This document shows, piece after piece, positions 29,067-39,042 of a DNA stretch of 39,254 nucleotides. The DNA comes from a virus. The notes below the pieces were generated by a model. It searched no databases and was not told the DNA's origin. It saw only the letters and a program-made list of their open reading frames with translations. Location: the UHGV virus genome UHGV-0143367. The stretch is one strand, 5' to 3'. A program made the translations under genes and the position numbers. Each line of letters opens with the position of its first letter. Position 1 is the stretch's first letter.

Positions 29067-29369
29067 TTAAATATTCATCTTTTTTGCAAGACTTTCATTT
29101 TGTTGCTCTGTATAGCGCTTTAACCAAAGCTCCTGAATATGCTGGTCACCTGGTTTATTTGCGCCACACCACTCCGCAATAACGGCATTTCGACACCAGT
29201 CAGGATGTGTTCTGAATCCGCAAGATGGACAAAACATCAAATATTCATTGCGTAGCTCAGATCTAACTAATTTCGGTTTTACTGCGTGGTGATGCATTAC
29301 TTGTTTGCAAAGGCAGGAAGGAATTTCACCGCCTGTTGCTGATATGCTTCTTCCGTAATTGGTCGACAT
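29067..29369 (-). CDS. Small Cys/His-rich (zinc-ribbon-like) protein
   Basis: 100 aa with CLC...H, CPSCG, C...C clusters; function unknown. Confidence 0.4.
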   Translation of the reverse strand: MSTNYGRSISATGGEIPSCLCKQVMHHHAVKPKLVRSELRNEYLMFCPSCGFRTHPDWCRNAVIAEWCGANKPGDQHIQELWLKRYTEQQNESLAKKMNI

Positions 29370-29991
29370 GTATTAACGCCTCCCGATCCATTTGAACACC
29401 GCAGGCCAACATGACATCCCAGCGATTTTTATAATTCTTCCGCCATAGGTCATATTTCACACCACATAGCTGGCTCAATTCTTCCTGGCTGTATTTAAGC
29501 TCGCCGCGGTTAATGAAATTTTTTGATTCCTGTAGAGCCAACCAGGCAAGTGCTTTTAAGTTGCTTTCAGTCTTGCCGTTCATTTTTGGCGATTTGCTTT
29601 CAGCCAAGTTAATCAGCAGGGAATGCCAGATATGTGTTGTCAGTATTGTTTGATATTCAAATGAAATTGAATCGCCGTAGCAGTAATTCAACCAGGATTT
29701 ATACGGCTCAGGCATTTTCAATAACGCGCTACGCCATGACACCTGGCTAAAAATGGCTGGCGATACCGGGATCATGCTCGTATGGTAACGCTTGCCTTCT
29801 CTGTAGCTGATTGGCTCGGCATCAATGACAATGACAGTGTCGTTATCGATATCAATTTCACGCTGCGGCTTTGCAGTAAATCGGCTCTGCAGTGGCGCAC
29901 GTTCTGCCATCGCGATGATCTGATTGCGGTGCGATTTTGAGAACGACAAAAGCGCTGCAGTAAGCTCGTTGCGAACAAAATTAAACTGCAT
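29326..29991 (-). CDS. Hypothetical regulatory protein (candidate late antiterminator Q by position)
   Basis: 221-aa ORF downstream of cro in the immunity region; no motif confirmed. Confidence 0.35.
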   Translation of the reverse strand: MQFNFVRNELTAALLSFSKSHRNQIIAMAERAPLQSRFTAKPQREIDIDNDTVIVIDAEPISYREGKRYHTSMIPVSPAIFSQVSWRSALLKMPEPYKSWLNYCYGDSISFEYQTILTTHIWHSLLINLAESKSPKMNGKTESNLKALAWLALQESKNFINRGELKYSQEELSQLCGVKYDLWRKNYKNRWDVMLACGVQMDREALIHVDQLRKKHISNRR

Positions 29992-30634
29992 ATTTGCCCC
30001 CTGCTTGATGGCCTAGCGGGCTTAGCGCACTAAGTTCAACGTGGTCCGGTTTAATGCCGGTGGCCATTTCTATATTCAGGATTTCCCGATAGAGGTATGA
30101 CGACAACTCATACAGGCGGTTCTGCAGCTGCTTCAGCGCGTGCTGGTCATCACTGCCATCGTATACACCGTCCTGGGCTGGCGCTGAGTTGGCGAGAACG
30201 GCACCGAATTTCACAGTGATCTCGTCAATTTCAGCGTCGACAGAATCAACACGAATACGGTTGTACTTAGGCATGCGGACCCATTGCAGACCCTGCATTG
30301 CGGCCAGCTTTTGAGAGCACTTATTACGGTACTCTTCCGGAAGACATGACAACCACGTTAACACCCAGTCTGCAGGCATCGGCGTATCACCAGCCAGGAC
30401 GCGCTGTGCACGCTTAATGCAACGGCTACGCCAGCGCATGTAATCCGTGACATTGATGCCTTCAGACCCCATATCAACAAGTCCCTGGAGTTCCAGAGCC
30501 GGAATCAAGCGCATTGTAGAGAATTGTGCGACACTGCCGCCGGTTTCATCGAGCATCCGCAAGGTTGCCCGTATAACCACTGATGACATTGTGTCTCGCG
30601 ATGGACGTTTATTCTGCCCCATGGTCTGAGTCAT
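29981..30634 (-). CDS. Hypothetical early protein downstream of cro (candidate regulator)
   Basis: Start at ATG 30634 with AAGGA Shine-Dalgarno; overlaps cro 3' end. Confidence 0.4.
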   Translation of the reverse strand: MTQTMGQNKRPSRDTMSSVVIRATLRMLDETGGSVAQFSTMRLIPALELQGLVDMGSEGINVTDYMRWRSRCIKRAQRVLAGDTPMPADWVLTWLSCLPEEYRNKCSQKLAAMQGLQWVRMPKYNRIRVDSVDAEIDEITVKFGAVLANSAPAQDGVYDGSDDQHALKQLQNRLYELSSYLYREILNIEMATGIKPDHVELSALSPLGHQAGGKYAV

Positions 30635-30815
30635 CCTTTTCTTTATGCAGTGTGTAATCAGATTTGAGTCGGCCATTTGTCTTAACTTCCAGCTCGTACT
30701 GCCTAAGCATGGGGACATCCTCTCCCCATTTGTAGATCGCAACGCGAGTACAACCGAGCAGTTCGCAGAGTTTGTTTATGCCGCCGCAGGCGGCTATGGC
30801 GTCTTTTGTTTTCAT
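30609..30815 (-). CDS. cro: Cro-like HTH regulator
   Basis: 68 aa; HTH segment (AIAACGGINKLCELLGCTRVAIYKW); divergent from the repressor gene. Confidence 0.7.
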   Translation of the reverse strand: MKTKDAIAACGGINKLCELLGCTRVAIYKWGEDVPMLRQYELEVKTNGRLKSDYTLHKEKDDSDHGAE

Positions 30816-30930
30816 GAAATGATACTAACCAAGCTATACAAGTTTTGTAAAGTGTACTTGTCAAAATTTACATTAATATTCCCTTTAGCCTTGTATAGCT
30901 AGCTATACAGATTTGATTTAATATCTCTCT
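30816..30930. promoter_or_regulatory. Divergent cro/cB promoter-operator region with 18-bp perfect palindrome TGTATAGCTAGCTATACA (30892-30909) and half-site AGCTATACA (30832-30840)
   Basis: Minus-strand -35 TTGACA (30859-30864) with 17-bp spacer to TTGTAT (30836-30841); palindrome lies ~20 bp upstream of the apparently leaderless cB ATG. Confidence 0.5.
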
Positions 30931-31560
30931 ATGGAAAAACGTGGTGATTGGCTGAAGGCTCGCCGTGAAGAGCTGAAGAAGCGAAATAAATCAAAGTTCT
31001 CAGTGAGAGCTGTTGCCGAACGCATCGGTATTACCGGTGCTGGCCTCTCGCATCTCGAAAACAGCGATGCTATGCCCGCGTTAGATCTGGCTATCAAGCT
31101 GGCGCGAGAGCTGGGCCGTCCTGTTGAATGGATCTTAACCGGTGCTGGCGGGGATGTGTTCCGTGGAGTCCCTGTTATTGGTTCTACTGCTACCGGTCCC
31201 AATCTGGAAATGATAAACAGCGGTCTGGCTCAAAACTGCCGGGAATTCGTTGATATCAATGTACAGGATGCAGCCTTATACGGCCTGATGGTCGATAACG
31301 ACGTTGCAGCGCCGTATCATATCGGTGAAGTACTGATCGCAGACCCTAATCGCGAGCCGGTGACAGGGGAAGATGTGGTGGTAGTCACAAAATCTGGCAA
31401 TGATACGTTTATTAAGATGTTAGCGTCTAAACGTGATGGCAAAGTGTTTCTTGACGCGCCGAACGACAGATCTCAGCGCGTGATAATCGATCTTGACGAA
31501 ATTATTTTGATTCATCCCGTTATCTGCGTGGCTAAATCTATAGCAGTTAAGGCCAGATAG
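30931..31560 (+). CDS. cB: Prophage repressor CB (CI-like HTH-XRE with C-terminal S24/LexA-like domain)
   Basis: 209 aa; N-terminal HTH (FSVRAVAERIGITGAGLSHLEN), C-terminal beta-rich domain; divergent from cro. Confidence 0.75.
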   Translation: MEKRGDWLKARREELKKRNKSKFSVRAVAERIGITGAGLSHLENSDAMPALDLAIKLARELGRPVEWILTGAGGDVFRGVPVIGSTATGPNLEMINSGLAQNCREFVDINVQDAALYGLMVDNDVAAPYHIGEVLIADPNREPVTGEDVVVVTKSGNDTFIKMLASKRDGKVFLDAPNDRSQRVIIDLDEIILIHPVICVAKSIAVKAR

Positions 31561-31580
31561 TAAATTTTAGTAACCAAGGT

Positions 31581-31610
31581 TTGTCAAATGCACTTGTCAG
31601 AGGCTATTAT
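31581..31610 (+). promoter_or_regulatory. Sigma70-like promoter (TTGTCA-18 bp-TATTAT) directed toward repA
   Basis: -35 TTGTCA at 31581-31586, -10 TATTAT at 31605-31610. Confidence 0.4.
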
Positions 31611-31703
31611 GTGGCGTGATAGCAATGATGAGTAAGAACTTGCCCCAGAGGTATAGTGCCAAGTGAGCACTTTTTAACCACCTCTGGATTCAGACAAATA
31701 AAA

Positions 31704-31731
31704 AGCCCCGGATGTGGCGTCCAGGGCTTTT
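31704..31731 (+). terminator. Terminator-like hairpin in repA leader
   Basis: AGCCCCGGA ... TCCAGGGCT stem (one mismatch) followed by TTTT. Confidence 0.4.
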
Positions 31732-31841
31732 CGGTGAAACAGGTCTAGAGTCAGCTCTTGTCGAAATGTGATTGGCGTTCACTAACAAAGATGCTAATCA
31801 AGACACAAGTGTGGAGTTGATTGTAGTTCGTTTCACCTGCA

Positions 31842-31868
31842 CTGCGCAACTGCGCAGCGTCTTTTTTT
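31842..31868 (+). terminator. Terminator-like hairpin plus T7 run ending ~10 nt before the repA start codon
   Basis: CTGCGC-aact-GCGCAG stem followed by CGTCTTTTTTT, then GGTGA Shine-Dalgarno and ATG. Confidence 0.4.
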
Positions 31869-31878
31869 GGGTGAAATA

Positions 31879-34800
31879 ATGAATTTAACGGAATATTTTC
31901 AACACAAATTTAACTCTGACCCGTTTTCGCTGCTTGATGCAGCATCAAATGAACTGAGTGATCTCGCGAACGCTGCCGGTATCGACTGGCATAAATGCGC
32001 TGGAGATATTCAGCTTTCTGCCTCTCGCGGTTCCGCTGAAAAATTCACAAAGTATGCCCACCATGGTCCTGCCGTTACTGATCCAAAGCTGAAAGGCAAG
32101 GTTGAGATTTACTCCCGCATGGAGTGTTCTCAGGACGGTATCAAATACCCGTTCATCAACTTTGTCTGTAAAGGTGCTGACGCTGGCGTATGGAGTGGCT
32201 TCCAGTTCCTTATCTCTGAATACCGTCGATACAAAGAACAGAACGGTGGGACCGTGGTCCCACTGTCTGCGCGTGAACTGGAGCAGCGTAAACGTGCTGA
32301 GGCGCGCCGCCATGAACGTGAGCGCCAGCAGGCTATCTCTGTGTTTATGGAGTCGCAGCGCCGCGACGCTGACCTGAACGAATACCTGCAGTTCTCCGCC
32401 GCATTCGCCAAGGCACCGGCAGAAGATGGTTCATGGCCATATGCGGTGAAGAAAGGCATCAGCTCTGTTTTCTCATACTGTAACGTAAGACGCGTAACCC
32501 ATTGGGACCATGGTCCCAATTCTAAAGCGGTTAAAAAACAAACTGTTATGGCGATTCCGCTGTCGCATATTGATGACCGTCGGGAAGACCGTGAATCTCG
32601 CGTTGGGCCGATTGTTGGCTGGCAGCGAATCACCGAGAGAAACGACAAGCTGCAGACCCGCGCTGTAGATTCCGGTGACTTTGCCGGTTCGTGTCACATC
32701 ATCGGCCAGCTGCGCGGCGCAACCAGGATCTGTGTTGTTGAAGGGTTCGCGACTGGTGCCAGCGTGTTCGCTGTAGCGAAAAAACGCTTTGATGCTGTTG
32801 TTGTGGCTGTGTCAGCAAATAACGTTATCAAGGTTGTTGATCAGCTGGTCAGCCTGTACCCAGGCATGGAAATCTGGTGCGCACTGGATAACGACCAGAA
32901 ATCGGCGCGGAATGGAAAAGGCAATACCGGGTTAAGAGTCGGCATCGATGTGATGAAGAAATTCCCGCAGGTCCGCTGCACATTCCCGATTTTCGACAGC
33001 AGCGAAACCGAATTAAGCGACTTTAACGATCTCCACCAGGCGCGCGGCGCCACCGAAACCAACCGCCAGCTGTTTTCAAAACAGAACCGCCTGCAGCTGC
33101 CAGGCAATTCCTTTGATGCTGAAATGCTGTCTCTGGCCGTTGCGCCGGTTTCCGATCGCCGCGCGTTCTCGCGCCAGCTGGTACGCTGCATTGATGCCGG
33201 CATGATGCAATGCCCGTCCAAGTTATCCCCGCAGGAGCTGATCTCGCTGATAAAAATGAAGCTGGACCAGCTCGGCGCCGACAAAGCGCTGCACGGTACC
33301 GTGTATAACCGCGTTAAACGCGCCTTCAAACAGAAATGCGACAAGGCCCAGGCTTTCCGATCATTCAGCGAGCGCGTAACGAACCCGGCAATACGCCCCG
33401 ACCACATCACCTATAAGCGGTTTGAAACACCCCACATGACCAAGGAAGTGCTGGATTACATCAAAGCACTGAGCGGCCCGGTAATCGTCCGTGCCGGCAT
33501 GGGGTCGGGCAAATCCAAACACTTGCTGCGCCCTATGATGCACAGCGCGCAGCGCGGCGTTTCGGTGGCGCACCGCGTTTCGCTGATTGGTGGCCTCTGG
33601 GACATGATGACGCGTGCCGACGATGGCCGTCGCATGAATTGCGACATCCTGCACTACCAGGACCCCGGCTATCAGGAGCTGGCGCCGTATGCCAGCAAAC
33701 TGACAATTTGTATTAACTCTATCGTGAAGGGCTGCTGGCAGCCACTGATGCGCAAACACGATTTCTTTGGCCTGGATGAAGCCACCCAGGGCCTGCGCGC
33801 CACGCTTTCCGGTAAAGCGATGGCGCACCCGGTTGATGTATTCAACCGTCTTATCGACTCTATCGCGTACAGCGATGACCACGCGCTGCTGGTTGATGCA
33901 GACGCCAGCGATATCCTGGTAGACCTCTGCGAACTGGCGCTGGCCAAACGCGAACAAACAGGCCTGTCGACCTGGACACAGATCCACGTCATCGAGCTGC
34001 CGGTTGATGTGAAGTACAAAAAAGCCGATGGCACGCGCGAAGCGCGCCGCGTACTTTACACCGACACCGATCGCATCATGGTTGAAGTACTGAAAGCCGT
34101 GGCTGCCGGCGAAAAATTCCTGCTGGCCACTGACTCAACCAACTTTGCCGAACAGTTGCTACTGCAGCTGCGCGACCGCTGGCCAGAAAAGAAATGGCTT
34201 TACGTCAGCCAGGACACAAAGCCGGATCAGGAAGTTGTGGCGTTTACCGACGCGCCGAACCAGCGCGCTAAACTCTACGATGGCCTTATTTATAGCCCGG
34301 CTATCAGTTCTGGCGTATCGATCGAAGAACGGCACTTCACCCGCCATTTCGGCTGCTTCTGCGGCCAGGTAGTGCCGTCCGACGCCATTCAGATGCTGCG
34401 CCGCGACAGGACCGCCACCGAATTTATGGTCGGCCTGAACAAGCTGCCTGGCGTACGCGAAGAGAACGCCGACAACATCCGCCGTGGGTTCCTGCAGGCA
34501 CTGCTGGAAACTGCCGAGATAAACGAAGAATTTACCGACGCCATCCTGGATGGCGACCGCCTTTCCCTTGGTCTGGCGGACACCACCTATGTCCGCATGA
34601 AATTTAAAGTTGCCGCGATGGAGGCCCAGGCCAGAAACGATTTCGCCAACAACCTGATCTGCATTCTCTACGCCGATGGCTATAACGTCAGCCACTTGGC
34701 CGAAGACTCGCTGGCCAGCGAAACCGGCAAAGAACTGCGTAAGGCATCGAAAGAGCGGGTCTGGGATATGACCGTTCTGCGCCATATGGAAGTGGAAACC

Positions 34801-35868
34801 CCGGACGAAGACGAACGCGACGAACTGATGGGCAAGCGATCACTATCTGAAGATGAGCAGGCGCAACTGGCGCGCTGGGATATCGAAAAAGAGTTGATGC
34901 TGGATGTCAGCCCGGAATCTCTGAAATTCCTGCTCGATGGCGGGAAGAAGAAACTGACGCTGGCCGAACTGATGACGATGGATGAAATGACCGCCGCACG
35001 CATTGACCGTGAGCAGCAGGCTTTCACGTTCACCTACCAATTCCGCAAAGGGCCGCGTAACGAATTTGTAACGATCACCGCGCTCAACCGCGAAGCAGCT
35101 GATGCGCAGTTCGACCGCATGCAGCCAGGAATAACCGGCTACACCGTCCAAAGCCGCCCGGTGATGGAAGTAACCCAGCGTACGTACGCATCGCTGCACC
35201 GTAAGGCCGCCAGGGAGTATTTCTCCACCTGCGGTATTAACCCAGATACCGGCGCCGGTGAAGCCAGCCAGGAAGGTATGGCGGAAGCTATGGCCAAACT
35301 TATGGACCCAACCACCGCGGATCGTTTCAACAACGTCCTGCGGTTCGGTGGCTATATAAACCCTAAAGGCCGCCAGAAACGCCCCGAGACGGTTTTCAAA
35401 CAGATCTGTGAGGCATTCGGTTACGCGACTCAGAAACGCCGCCTACCGCGTTCACAGGGCCTCGGTTACGTGTGGTCAATCGTCCCCGAATCCTGGGAAT
35501 TCATTCACGGAATTCTGGCGCGTCGCGCCGAGGCATCACTGTCGTTTGTCCAGATGAAACTGGATGTGGGGGCACCGGAAGAACCGGATCTCGATTGCCG
35601 ATCAAATATAGATGTAAGATCCCAATCTGGATCTGCTGAGACGGCATTTATTGAGGCAACGCTGACGACGATTGAAGAGGCTATCGCTGCGATGCCGGTG
35701 CCATTTGCATGGCTGAGAACCGCACTGACGCCGGAAGAACTGGCACAACTCGCGACTATGCCGCCACGGTTGATACAGGCGACGGTTGCCGGGCTGTTTA
35801 TGGCTGACAATATGTGGCAACTATCAGATGGCCAATACAACGAACTGAAGCGGTTGCAGGCGGTTTAA
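31879..35868 (+). CDS. repA: Replication protein RepA (primase-helicase) of N15-type linear plasmid-prophage
   Basis: About 1329 aa from ATG 31879 (ORF track begins at upstream TTG); Walker A GMGSGKSK; size and position next to cB and telN as in N15. Confidence 0.85.
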   Translation: MNLTEYFQHKFNSDPFSLLDAASNELSDLANAAGIDWHKCAGDIQLSASRGSAEKFTKYAHHGPAVTDPKLKGKVEIYSRMECSQDGIKYPFINFVCKGADAGVWSGFQFLISEYRRYKEQNGGTVVPLSARELEQRKRAEARRHERERQQAISVFMESQRRDADLNEYLQFSAAFAKAPAEDGSWPYAVKKGISSVFSYCNVRRVTHWDHGPNSKAVKKQTVMAIPLSHIDDRREDRESRVGPIVGWQRITERNDKLQTRAVDSGDFAGSCHIIGQLRGATRICVVEGFATGASVFAVAKKRFDAVVVAVSANNVIKVVDQLVSLYPGMEIWCALDNDQKSARNGKGNTGLRVGIDVMKKFPQVRCTFPIFDSSETELSDFNDLHQARGATETNRQLFSKQNRLQLPGNSFDAEMLSLAVAPVSDRRAFSRQLVRCIDAGMMQCPSKLSPQELISLIKMKLDQLGADKALHGTVYNRVKRAFKQKCDKAQAFRSFSERVTNPAIRPDHITYKRFETPHMTKEVLDYIKALSGPVIVRAGMGSGKSKHLLRPMMHSAQRGVSVAHRVSLIGGLWDMMTRADDGRRMNCDILHYQDPGYQELAPYASKLTICINSIVKGCWQPLMRKHDFFGLDEATQGLRATLSGKAMAHPVDVFNRLIDSIAYSDDHALLVDADASDILVDLCELALAKREQTGLSTWTQIHVIELPVDVKYKKADGTREARRVLYTDTDRIMVEVLKAVAAGEKFLLATDSTNFAEQLLLQLRDRWPEKKWLYVSQDTKPDQEVVAFTDAPNQRAKLYDGLIYSPAISSGVSIEERHFTRHFGCFCGQVVPSDAIQMLRRDRTATEFMVGLNKLPGVREENADNIRRGFLQALLETAEINEEFTDAILDGDRLSLGLADTTYVRMKFKVAAMEAQARNDFANNLICILYADGYNVSHLAEDSLASETGKELRKASKERVWDMTVLRHMEVETPDEDERDELMGKRSLSEDEQAQLARWDIEKELMLDVSPESLKFLLDGGKKKLTLAELMTMDEMTAARIDREQQAFTFTYQFRKGPRNEFVTITALNREAADAQFDRMQPGITGYTVQSRPVMEVTQRTYASLHRKAAREYFSTCGINPDTGAGEASQEGMAEAMAKLMDPTTADRFNNVLRFGGYINPKGRQKRPETVFKQICEAFGYATQKRRLPRSQGLGYVWSIVPESWEFIHGILARRAEASLSFVQMKLDVGAPEEPDLDCRSNIDVRSQSGSAETAFIEATLTTIEEAIAAMPVPFAWLRTALTPEELAQLATMPPRLIQATVAGLFMADNMWQLSDGQYNELKRLQAV
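32247..32262. repeat. SopB-box-like inverted repeat TGGGACC-GT-GGTCCCA inside repA
   Basis: Direct match; encodes ...GGTVVP... in the RepA frame. Confidence 0.65.
32501..32520. repeat. SopB-box-like palindrome ATTGGGACCATGGTCCCAAT inside repA
   Basis: Perfect 20-bp palindrome; encodes ...HWDHGPN... in the RepA frame. Confidence 0.7.
35585..35640. other. Candidate replication-origin element inside the 3' end of repA: four GATC sites in 47 bp with inverted repeat AGATCC...GGATCT
   Basis: GATC at 35587, 35600, 35618, 35630; the N15 ori maps within the 3' part of repA (recalled, not verified here). Confidence 0.3.
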
Positions 35869-37140: not shown

Positions 37141-39042
37141 TTAATTTTCTGGGAAATACGCAAACCATGCTGATTTCATGGCACTGCTGATACTATCCGC
37201 CGCGCCACTCCAGGCGTATAGCTGCCCCTTGTATTTGAAACGGATCGTCCAGCTGCCGTCGTCACTACGAACGGGCGCGGAGAAGCGTGGACGAGTGTCT
37301 ATTGGTACTGGTTTTTCCTCTTCGGCCTCGGCGGTCACGCCATCTTCTCGGCCTTCCTCTTCAGCTTCCAGCGCCTGGGTATCGTCACTGGTTTCCTCTC
37401 TATCGGCACCGCTATCGCCAGCGAGGTCGTCTTCACCATCCAGTTCGTCAGAGGTTATGACAATAGAGGGCGCATCTGCATTGTTAATCGTACTGCTCAT
37501 AGCCAGCGCCTCAGCAACAAAATCAAGATACCGGCGAACTAGCGTCGGGTTAAATCCAGCATCTCGTAATATTTTTGTGTTGATGACGATATCAGCTGAT
37601 TCCTCCACCAGCCGCTTTGTTGTTTCATGAATACGGATACCGGCATCGCCCCTGGCGAAGCCAGGCATTTGGTCGTCAAGCGCTTGTAGAGCAGCGAGGC
37701 GCTTATTTTCAATCCCCGTTTCCGGGCGCCAGCTGCGTGAGAAATTATGCAGTTTGAACTGTTTGTAGTGCAGCTGCGTATTTTCGTCGTCATGCCCCAG
37801 GATTTCAGAGAAAAAGACGTCCTCATCAACGTTTTTCCAGCGCGGGTCGTAGCGGAAAAACGCCTCATAGGTGATACGCGCATAAATTGCGCGCGTGTCT
37901 TTGAATGTTCGGCGGTCGTCGCCGAAGAACAGCTTCGCGTGCTGGTTAAATGTGTTACCAAGAATTGATGCGATGCGCACATTTGCGGCCCGGTAGCTAT
38001 CATCGTTCAACAGAGATCTGATTTCGTCAAAATCAGCCGCTGCGGGGCAACTTCTCAGTTCATTTAAACGTTGAACGAACAGGGCCGGGTCGCACAGCAC
38101 ATAAATTTTACGCCCCTTATCCTCGCCGGTTCGTTTTTTGGCCTGCCCGTAGAAAATAACTTCATACTTGCCGGTAACCTCAAATTCTCCCTGAACCATC
38201 ACCTCAATCAATCGACGCCCGGATACGGCTGCTAGCGCGAACGCCAGCGGCGCCATATCCTTACGTTGCGTGATAAGTGATGGTTCAAACGCCTTGTAGA
38301 TCTGCTCGGTCACAGCCTGCATATATTTGGGGTAGTCCAAGAGTACAGTTGACCGTTTCTTCTCGCTGAGCACCTCGCCCCAGCGCTGCTGTATCGATGA
38401 GCGTTCTGCCGGACTCAACTGCAGGTGATACAGAATTTCATGGTTGATTTTCAGGCCGTTCAGATCATCCAACAAGCGGGTTCCCTGTTGGAACGCGGCA
38501 TGCATTTCGGTTTCGACCGACTTCCAGTCTTGGCTGGTCAACGCGTTAAGATAGATGCTCCAGGCAGGGTATTTTTTTGCCAGGCGCGTCAATTTTTTCT
38601 CCGCAGCCGGTCCGAACTTCATACCCGAAAGCACCTCCGCCAGCGGCATAATTTCCTTCAGTTGGCCCTGTAGATTGCCGTATGCCTGACGAATATCTGC
38701 CGCAGGCATAGATTGCCACGCCTGTAATTCAGCACTGTAGGCGGGGTATTTTGCCGCTAACTTTTCAATGCTGCTGGTGAAGTGATGGTGCAAACGGTCG
38801 TCGAACTGTTTACGAATACGGGTCATATACGCGTTATAAGTATTGGCTGTAATGCGTTTCTTCAAACCGTTACCACGGAACTTCCTTTTATCTAAAAATA
38901 GCGCGTTTTTAACACGTGTAGCCGCAGCCTTATATTTTCGTGTCTTATCTCCCTGTGGGATGTCGGACGCTTCGATAGCGTCAACGTCCGCCACCAAATC
39001 AGAGATGATTTTACCAATTCCGCCATCGCCTAGCTTCGCCAT
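37141..39042 (-). CDS. telN: Protelomerase (telomere resolvase) TelN
   Basis: 633 aa; long blocks match N15 TelN as recalled (QGDKT, NALF.DKRKFRG.GL.KRITAN, HLQLSPAER.SIQQRW, MAPLAFALAAVSGRR, WKNVDEDVFF.EILGHDDENTQLHYKQFKL.NFSR.WRPE, MPGFARGDAG); acidic C-terminal tail; GAGGGGGG Shine-Dalgarno. Confidence 0.95.
   Translation of the reverse strand: MAKLGDGGIGKIISDLVADVDAIEASDIPQGDKTRKYKAAATRVKNALFLDKRKFRGNGLKKRITANTYNAYMTRIRKQFDDRLHHHFTSSIEKLAAKYPAYSAELQAWQSMPAADIRQAYGNLQGQLKEIMPLAEVLSGMKFGPAAEKKLTRLAKKYPAWSIYLNALTSQDWKSVETEMHAAFQQGTRLLDDLNGLKINHEILYHLQLSPAERSSIQQRWGEVLSEKKRSTVLLDYPKYMQAVTEQIYKAFEPSLITQRKDMAPLAFALAAVSGRRLIEVMVQGEFEVTGKYEVIFYGQAKKRTGEDKGRKIYVLCDPALFVQRLNELRSCPAAADFDEIRSLLNDDSYRAANVRIASILGNTFNQHAKLFFGDDRRTFKDTRAIYARITYEAFFRYDPRWKNVDEDVFFSEILGHDDENTQLHYKQFKLHNFSRSWRPETGIENKRLAALQALDDQMPGFARGDAGIRIHETTKRLVEESADIVINTKILRDAGFNPTLVRRYLDFVAEALAMSSTINNADAPSIVITSDELDGEDDLAGDSGADREETSDDTQALEAEEEGREDGVTAEAEEEKPVPIDTRPRFSAPVRSDDGSWTIRFKYKGQLYAWSGAADSISSAMKSAWFAYFPEN

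Follow-up and report, generated by a model that had tools for sequence, protein, structure and literature searches.

A predicted antisense RNA and a proposed refolding of the repA leader in the cB-repA gap of an N15/PY54-type phage-plasmid

Background

Replicons with hairpin telomeres have their model in the linear phage-plasmids of the N15 type, which also form the basis of the pJAZZ linear cloning vectors and are common in Enterobacteriaceae. The subject of this analysis is the 318-nucleotide (nt) gap (31561-31878) between the gene for the prophage repressor, cB, and the one for replication, repA, in the virus genome UHGV-0143367, a stretch of 39,254 nt that is called the window throughout and that, judged from its genes, is an N15/PY54-type linear phage-plasmid (“telomere phage”). 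Plasmid replication genes controlled through their leaders provide the closest described parallels. In R1 (IncFII) the repressor CopB works together with CopA, a constitutive countertranscript of ~90 nt that is made from within the leader, ends in a terminator hairpin, makes its first contact by loop-loop kissing and acts on translation: it blocks that of the leader peptide tap, and repA translation is coupled to tap. In pSK41, pIP501 and pT181, once a countertranscript has bound to the leader's 5' part, a segment further downstream is released and folds into an inhibitory structure close ahead of rep; in pSK41 this induced structure both attenuates transcription and occludes the ribosome-binding site. 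RNAI and RNAII of ColE1 make their first contact through fully complementary 7-nt loops, and lambdoid boxB sites are twin hairpins with one shared loop sequence that co-varies between phages. RNAII of pMV158 pairs at the repB initiation region itself. In pMV158 the repressor CopG and the short antisense RNAII are reported to inhibit initiator-gene translation, RNAII being composed of a 5' single-stranded tail and a terminator hairpin (PMC4485353).

For N15 and φKO2, binding of the repressor CB to OL operators at the repA promoter has been reported to lower repA transcription and copy number, and this literature deals with control of transcription initiation only (PMC4997575, PMC4488713). Within the papers covered, copy control of N15-type elements is attributed to the prophage repressor alone. 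Inactivation of the repressor raises the copy number only from about 5 to about 50 (PMC2847241), and this leaves room for a second brake. The incompatibility type of N15-type elements is listed as unknown (PMC11652158).

On balance we favour, by a modest degree, the reading that the cB-repA gap is a two-layer copy-number module in which a repressor is joined by an antisense RNA acting through refolding of the leader. The existence of the predicted countertranscript gene is the firmer part of this reading and is considered probable. The reading draws on sequence features, their conservation, covariation and strand asymmetry, from which we infer the existence of the RNA, its binding and its effect on translation. 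Dual control of a rep gene by a repressor and a leader countertranscript, as predicted here, would resemble CopB and CopA-CopT of R1. Unlike R1, the locus gave no sequence or Rfam match to that system, its leader peptide is not conserved and the proposed effector is a helix over the translation initiation region (TIR), termed here the anti-TIR helix. In shape, RNAII of pMV158 is like the short versions predicted here, such as one of about 75 nt in PY54; unlike RNAII, the antisense RNA predicted in the window stops about 55 nt short of the Shine-Dalgarno (SD) sequence and would act indirectly through refolding.

Relatives and conserved layout of the leader

The closest annotated relatives were the Yersinia phages PY54 and P840, with 64-67% DNA identity over the region. 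The DNA search otherwise gave only four Salmonella linear plasmids (64-69% identity overall, PY54 and P840 included), and no close DNA relatives were found in E. coli genomes. Relatives were therefore gathered through RepA instead, and a search of viral, genome and metagenome collections with the RepA N-terminus returned more than 100 loci, which sorted into a window/PY54 group (group A), an N15 group and several outliers. Locus labels are used where lineages have to be told apart: L012 is N15, L007 is PY54, L043 is a metagenome contig (95% identical), and L143 and L146-149 are outlier lineages with RepA identity down to 41%. The RepA of the window is 53% identical to that of N15. Leaders from different groups could not be aligned, yet their layout was alike.

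A preliminary description of the leader had named a promoter, two terminator-like hairpins and the repA start. Its elements were all located where it had placed them: the promoter hexamers TTGTCA (31581-31586) and TATTAT (31605-31610) with an 18-nt spacer, hairpin 1 (31701-31731), hairpin 2 (31842-31857) with a run of seven T (T7) at 31862-31868, and GGTGA (31870-31874) before the ATG at 31879, the T-run ending 10 nt ahead of the start codon. Three elements absent from that description were added, namely a 105-nt hairpin, stem-loop A and a hairpin designated hp0. Folding of the leader, which had been proposed as a check, gave -93.6 kcal/mol for 280 nt (z = -4.0 against shuffles). In a scan of 1.8 kb there were four promoter-like sites, with 2.6±1.9 expected, and six terminator-like sites, with 1.4±1.3 expected. 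Consensus scans by themselves are weak evidence; at the level of sequence, conservation settles that the elements are real, since relatives whose RepA is 41-77% identical keep the -10 box, hairpins 1 and 2 and the stretch that reaches from the 3' arm of the long hairpin to the ATG.

A countertranscript gene predicted on the minus strand

Three features define the predicted gene.

31820-31849, minus strand: predicted countertranscript promoter, -35 TTGCGC (31849-31844), 18-nt spacer, -10 TACAAT (31825-31820), from positional conservation
31694-31731, minus strand: hairpin 1 with its U-tract (31704 down to 31694), putative intrinsic terminator of the predicted countertranscript, from tail and wobble evidence
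~31813 to ~31696, minus strand: predicted countertranscript of ~116 nt, its ends placed to within a few nt from the promoter and terminator

Hairpin 1 has the sequence AAAAGCCCCGGATG-TGG-CGTCCAGGGCTTTT and also forms a hairpin in the repA leader on the plus strand, for which it had been described as a terminator. The terminator scan scored it on the minus strand only, where its folding energy is -19.7 kcal/mol and its tail reads UUUUUAUUU. In all 19 lineages compared, the 9 nt on its 5' side contain 7-8 A, giving a minus-strand tail with 7-8 U of 9, whereas the plus-strand tail holds 3-7 T of 9 and is often interrupted (TTTTCGG in the window, CTTCGTACT in PY54). The imperfect pairs of the core stem, found in the window, L005/L006, L094 and L139, are all A·C on the plus strand and correspond to G·U on the minus strand; at least five pairs are wobbles exclusive to the minus strand, and no pair is a wobble exclusive to the plus strand. 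Because the conserved U-tract and the wobble pairs belong to the minus strand, the role of plus-strand terminator assigned to hairpin 1 was not upheld, and the small RNA would be antisense to the leader. The suggestion that the leader encodes a small regulatory RNA thus survives in part: a small RNA is probably present, but it is predicted to lie opposite the leader rather than within it. When the hairpin 1 16-mer was sought in viral contigs, it was found in members of the same family only, apart from chance matches in GC-rich contigs.

Minus-strand sites of the σ70 type between hairpin 1 and the repA start were scored with a simple weight matrix. In 18 of the 20 lineages, which span RepA N-termini 95 to 41% identical, the best site was in the same place, with its -10 box at -53 to -63 from the ATG. 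The minus-strand hexamers and spacer lengths were as follows.

Window, L002, L006, PY54, L089, L092, L143, L146 and L149: TTGCGC-18-TACAAT
L003 and L005: TTGCAC-18-TAAAAT
L094: TTGAAA-18-TAAAAT
L141: TTGCGT-18-TAAAAT
N15 group: TTGAAA-17-CACAAT or CAGAAT
L087: TTGCGC-17-TATCAT

The spacers themselves were unrelated between lineages (AGTGCAGGTGAAACGAAC, ATAGGGGCAGGACTTCGC and ACAGGGTCCGGTCTTAGC, for example). Hexamers held at fixed spacing around free spacers are the expected signature of a promoter, and a minus-strand promoter is therefore predicted. The minus-strand terminator follows 67-116 nt downstream of it across lineages. Read from sequence, 18 of the 20 lineages have an opposite-strand promoter and an intrinsic terminator bounding a small RNA in the range of about 50-150 nt. 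In the window this RNA would be complementary to hairpin 1 and to the 5' arm and apex of the long hairpin described below but not to its 3' arm, and it is predicted to fold into a weakly structured 5' part and the terminator hairpin.

No Rfam family reached its gathering score over the whole window, the known countertranscript families (CopA, RNAI, ctRNA_pT181, ctRNA_pND324 and others) being unmatched, and at permissive thresholds over the leader the best match was NsiR1 (E = 0.73), which was driven by the terminator. In the literature searched, which did not extend to the primary N15 and PY54 replication papers, no countertranscript, refolding leader or twin loops were described for repA of N15, PY54 or φKO2.

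Among 33 distinct leaders of the N15 group, hairpin 1 and the promoter block showed zero diversity, third codon positions of repA had a diversity of 0.34 and the ~45 nt between hairpin 1 and the promoter block varied at 0.37-0.45.

A separate observation on these 33 leaders (e.g. L012 2335-2375 and 2440-2475) was that hairpin 1 and its flanks, loop included, are invariant together with a 35-nt block (TTATTGTGGCTGCTCCTGCGGATTTTTTCA). A plain terminator or promoter would not need invariance of this extent.

A long hairpin whose 3' arm has two possible partners

The leader segments proposed to refold are listed below.

31733-31837, plus strand: long leader hairpin of 105 nt (open state), with 5' arm 31733-31758 (GGTGAAAC...) and 3' arm 31812-31837 (...GTTTCACC), from folding
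31816-31837, plus strand: anti-TIR segment within the 3' arm, GTTGATTGTAGTTCGTTTCACC, predicted to pair with either the 5' arm or the repA initiation region, from folding and covariation
31869-31903, plus strand: repA TIR, with SD GGTGA at 31870-31874, ATG at 31879-31881 and codons through TCAAC at 31899-31903

The long hairpin folds at -40.6 kcal/mol on the plus strand, compared with -25.0 on the minus strand, and was present in the N15 group and, with a variable apex, in every group-A lineage. In the alternative closed state the 3' arm is paired with the SD, ATG and first codons (31869-31903). The head of the 5' arm, TTTTCGGTGAAA (31728-31739), and the SD region, TTTTGGGTGAAA (31865-31876), are near-duplicates, and the last part of the 3' arm (31830-31837) is complementary to each of them. 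The three segments covary in the order 5' arm, 3' arm and SD, with GGTGAAA/TTTCACC/GGTGAAA in the window, GGCGAAA/TTTCGCC/GGCGAAA in L002 and L006, and CGGAGAT/TTTCCGC/GCGGAAA in PY54, and the alternative duplexes of the 3' arm are about equally stable, at -10 to -15 kcal/mol with either cognate partner. Run unsupervised, RNAalifold returned the 3' arm paired with the SD, ATG and codons 2-4, with hairpin 2 as a cap. For the closed structure and hairpin 1 together, 97% of cells paired, against 37-47% in slid controls, and five pairs had changed on both sides; within the helix of the SD and its complement, three of the eight pairs had done so.

In a refolding test the part of the leader that the predicted countertranscript would cover was deleted and the remainder folded. 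The unpaired probability of the SD in the window fell from 0.33-0.74 to about 0, and in nearly every lineage tested the 3' arm came to pair with the SD, AUG or first codons, each lineage using sequences of its own.

L094: CTCCC with GGGAG
L141: TCTCC with GGAGA, and TCATTTT with AAAATGA
L143: unpaired probability of the AUG from 0.66 to 0.01
L140: unpaired probability of the AUG from 0.49 to 0.04
N15: UCC and UGGCU with GGAAAGGCUA

The start of the predicted countertranscript (~31813) falls just outside the anti-TIR segment (31816-31837), and the -10 box keeps the same offset from the ATG in other lineages. A longer antisense RNA would cover that segment and would activate translation rather than repress it.

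Several points weigh against an antisense RNA that acts by refolding. The minus-strand promoter of the window scored 10.3, with a median best score of 10.0 in shuffles, and only its positional conservation is significant; its -35 box matches the consensus at 3/6 positions and its spacer is 18 nt. Conservation of ATTGTA within it could come partly from pairing of the 3' arm with the coding start. Independent covariation events are few, and there are only about six group-A lineages. The antisense body of the N15 group showed no diversifying selection, its diversity being close to that of synonymous sites, that is, about the neutral rate. The full-length leader of PY54 already favours the closed form, the closed structure of L087 covers codons 3-10 but not the SD region, and for the N15 group the SD is predicted to be poorly accessible whichever state the leader is in. 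Accessibility of the SD was therefore set aside as a simple readout, since it does not discriminate between the states in PY54, L087 and the N15 group.

Structures and covariation of this kind need no RNA acting in trans, and the leader could work purely in cis, the long hairpin and anti-TIR helix serving as a constitutive translational damper or folding timer and hairpin 1 as a bidirectional insulator that would stop cB read-through and stray antisense transcription. The weakness of the minus-strand promoter by consensus and the bidirectional form of hairpin 1 in the N15 group fit such an arrangement. It would leave unexplained why a minus-strand U-tract is universal although no minus-strand gene lies within 4 kb of it (repA and both open reading frames (ORFs) that follow are plus-strand), and why the promoter hexamers hold their spacing and position amid diverging spacers; moreover, a switch with two balanced partners needs a trigger. 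A leader acting only in cis is regarded as unlikely.

Hairpin 2 and transcription attenuation

31842-31868, plus strand: hairpin 2, CTGCGC-AACT-GCGCAG (31842-31857, extendable to 31839-31860), followed by CGTC and T7 (31862-31868)

The preliminary description had read hairpins 1 and 2 as two plus-strand terminators gating repA, with read-through brought about by attenuation or by an antiterminator such as phage Q. Much about hairpin 2 agrees with this. Extended by two further pairs it reaches -12.2 kcal/mol and is followed by CUUUUUUU, which is the canonical shape of a plus-strand intrinsic terminator, and because its G·U changes in the L003 and PY54 clades are mismatches on the minus strand, it is plus-strand RNA in which hairpin 2 folds. 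Between T7 and the ATG there is no space for a promoter, so that transcription of repA has to pass through hairpin 2. The plus side of hairpin 1 also carries 5-7 T in the N15 group and L143, the long hairpin of the N15 group is followed by CGGATTTTTT, and a Q gene lies nearby (29326-29991).

Against this gating stand the poor plus-strand tail of hairpin 1 in the window group and the wobble pairs that fit the minus strand only, as given above, and also the mode of action of Q, which works by way of a site in the DNA at the late promoter that it serves. Nothing was found that would make termination at hairpin 2 conditional: no pairing that competes with it was detected, hairpin 2 being present in both the open and the closed folds, and because of this the sequence provides no switch for attenuation or antitermination. 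L044, L087, L143 and L146-149 lack the T-run, though hairpin 2 and the other architecture persist there. Gating of repA by two plus-strand terminators is therefore thought improbable. Hairpin 2 with T7 may be a constitutive leaky attenuator in this lineage, and not a conserved core of the mechanism. The 5' half of hairpin 2 is at the same time the -35 box of the minus-strand promoter.

A conditional terminator at hairpin 2 that depends on the countertranscript, of the pT181/pIP501 type, was considered separately and rejected. In pSK41, pIP501 and pT181 the intrinsic terminator is induced, unlike the hairpin and T7 of the window, which form whatever the state of the 5' arm and whose T-run is not family-wide.

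Leader promoter P and its putative operator

31581-31610, plus strand: leader promoter P, TTGTCA-18-TATTAT (10/12 consensus positions), expected start near 31617
31562-31599: putative operator-like repeat (OL type) over the -35 box and spacer of P, a copy of 30817-30863

The hexamers of P, TTGnnA-17/18-TATTAT, were kept with diverged spacers in group A, L143 (where the -10 box is TATCAT) and L146-149. The region 30817-30863 is the cro/cB intergenic region and lies on the cro and cB promoters, and the 19-mer core of the operator occurs twice in 39 kb against 0.01 occurrences expected. The repA promoter is thus overlapped by operators that recur between cB and cro, as in N15 and φKO2, with which the locus also shares the gene order cro-cB-leader-repA and the replicon family; unlike in those phages, the operator sequence of the window is its own (TTGTCAAATGCACTTGTCA) and is putative by sequence. 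By analogy, 31562-31599 is the counterpart of the N15/φKO2 OL operators, a control layer already known in these relatives. The view of the leader as a copy-number control point gains support from this operator-like copy of the cro/cB promoter region.

Some related observations were made on this module. The promoter-operator module at 31562-31610 looks duplicated from the cro-cB module at 30817-30874, where a plus-strand TTGTAA-18-TACATT, likely the cB promoter, overlaps the minus-strand cro promoter TTTACA-18-TAGTAT. A third, weaker copy of the first operator repeat is located at 31786-31802, inside the apex of the long hairpin. In the metagenome contig L045 (OKVX01004734.1), the repressor gene's 3' part is fused, ~330-250 nt upstream of repA, to the leader downstream of the promoter, so that the contig lacks the end of cB together with the operator and promoter P; either a deletion that arose naturally or faulty assembly could account for this.

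Twin loops of hp0 and hairpin 1

31603-31623, plus strand: hp0, GCTATTA-TGTGGCG-TGATAGC, on the -10 box and start site of P, from RNAalifold columns 26-46 and folding
31645-31687, plus strand: stem-loop A, CCAGAGGT...ACCTCTGG, from folding

The stems of hp0 and hairpin 1 are unrelated, and their apices (for hairpin 1, at 31709-31721) are identical and in the same orientation. The 9-mer ATGTGGCGT has its sole exact copies in 39 kb in these two hairpins, and the idea of a dispersed protein site was rejected on that count. The shared apex co-varies between lineages, being TGTGGCG in the window group, the PY54 clade, L087 and L094, TTTTGCCG in L146-149 and TGCAGA in L143; the N15 group did not show the twin-loop pattern. 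Since about 15 pairs in hp0 stems are G·U on the plus strand only and two on the minus strand only, hp0 is taken to be a plus-strand RNA hairpin. Its 5' stem holds the -10 box, so that it cannot form in transcripts begun at P and would therefore occur only in cB read-through transcripts. In the predicted countertranscript the terminator loop (CGCCACA) matches both loops as their exact complement, no other perfect complement being present in the 39-kb window, and for this reason a second kissing site is the most economical reading of hp0. Fully complementary 7-nt loops and co-varying twin loops recall ColE1 and boxB; unlike in either, the identical loops here are 100 nt apart in one leader, one of them on a promoter.

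The same apex in the same orientation on unrelated stems, co-varying between lineages, together with wobble pairs of hp0 that fit plus-strand RNA, would also suit twin sites for a loop-specific RNA-binding protein, similar to boxB and N, that sets cB-repA read-through or stability. The pattern is absent in the N15 group, hp0 cannot form in transcripts from P, and an RNA partner is already available in the perfectly complementary loop of the countertranscript. We know of no candidate loop-binding, Rom-like or N-like protein for the twin loops, and a protein partner of this kind is judged quite unlikely.

Stem-loop A was observed between P and hairpin 1, usually with a U-rich loop, and outside the predicted antisense RNA. 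It formed in 10/10 group-A-type leaders folded, from differing sequences (CCAATT/AATTGG, CCAAAA/TTTTGG, GTCAA/TTGAC and others).

Proposed model of copy-number control

In the two-layer model, the first layer would be the prophage repressor, which at the operator over P would limit repA transcription and set the number of leaders. For the second layer, a constitutive σ70 minus-strand promoter (31849-31820) would give the ~116-nt countertranscript ending at hairpin 1. Where no countertranscript is bound, the long hairpin (31733-31837) would sequester the 3' arm and leave the weak SD and ATG accessible. First contact would probably be a 7-nt loop-loop kiss at hairpin 1 of the nascent leader; hairpin 1 of the mRNA emerges 1 nt ahead of the 5' arm, which the antisense RNA would then invade. 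The freed 3' arm (31816-31837) would pair with the region 31869-31903, which holds GGTGAAA, the ATG and the opening codons; hairpin 2 would cap the structure, and repA translation would be blocked. Hairpin 2 and T7 may in addition terminate some plus-strand transcripts. As the countertranscript level would rise and fall with gene dosage, the result would be negative feedback on copy number.

Translational coupling to a leader peptide, as in tap-repA of R1 or the repY type of IncI/IncB plasmids, was rejected as very improbable: a 35-codon ORF with a TTG start (31772-31879) begins within the region that the antisense RNA would cover, its stop in the window and L002 shares bases with the repA start (TAATG), and in no lineage does a stop interrupt the frame between TTGATT and the start of repA, but the TTG has no usable SD and no conserved position, the stops differ (-2, +1, -11 or in frame with repA) with TAATG confined to those two lineages, the peptide changes non-synonymously (RFTCTAQ vs RFAVPAQ), and twenty stop-free codons are expected by chance about 38% of the time.

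Relative to the literature searched, from which the primary N15/PY54 papers were absent, repressor control at the repA promoter is known, and the predicted countertranscript, refolding leader and twin loops would be new. If the two-layer model holds, it would explain why loss of repressor activity leads to no more than a bounded rise in copy number, would supply N15-type elements with an incompatibility determinant, would offer a handle for tuning the copy number of linear vectors and would show one 300-nt leader shared by the immunity circuit of a phage and an RNA feedback loop of the plasmid kind. A broader proposal, which we put forward as speculative and more doubtful than likely, is that all N15/PY54-type telomere phage-plasmids carry a previously undescribed repA-leader countertranscript gene, with repressor and antisense RNA jointly setting the copy number and the terminator loop recognising both hairpin 1 and hp0; as hp0 would be present in cB read-through transcripts only, lysogenic and derepressed repA messages would be treated differently and immunity would be coupled to replication.

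Gene context and further observations

The genes around the leader were assigned as follows.

29326-29991, minus strand: Q antiterminator gene (Pfam Phage_antiter_Q)
30609-30815, minus strand, divergent from cB: cro, P22-type (Pfam P22_Cro)
30931-31560, plus strand: cB, cB/cI-type prophage repressor gene (Pfam HTH_3 and Phage_CI_repr); the PY54 counterpart is annotated 'prophage repressor'
31879-35868, plus strand: repA, 1329 amino acids from the ATG, N15/PY54-type primase-helicase replication protein (Toprim domain)
37141-39042, minus strand, convergent with repA: protelomerase gene telN, TelK-type (TelK domain)

By Pfam, the window has the parts of the N15-type telomere phage-plasmid module, namely Q, a divergent cro, a cB/cI repressor, a repA primase-helicase and a convergent protelomerase. 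The gene cB is directly upstream of the leader and oriented as repA, and two ORFs downstream of repA are also on the plus strand. In the Salmonella linear plasmids the repA counterpart is annotated 'plasmid replication protein, CyRepA1 family'.

Within the 5' part of repA, a terminator-like hairpin (GTGGGACCACGGTCCCAC) with a poor T-tail was noted on the minus strand at 32246-32263. Several IMG/VR contigs of 44-92 kb contain two inverted copies of the repA region (L009/L011, L027/L031, L028/L032, L037/L038, L089/L090 and L117/L123). Inverted repA copies are what head-to-head dimers of linear plasmids with hairpin ends should show, whether these stem from replication intermediates or from assembly across the telomere.

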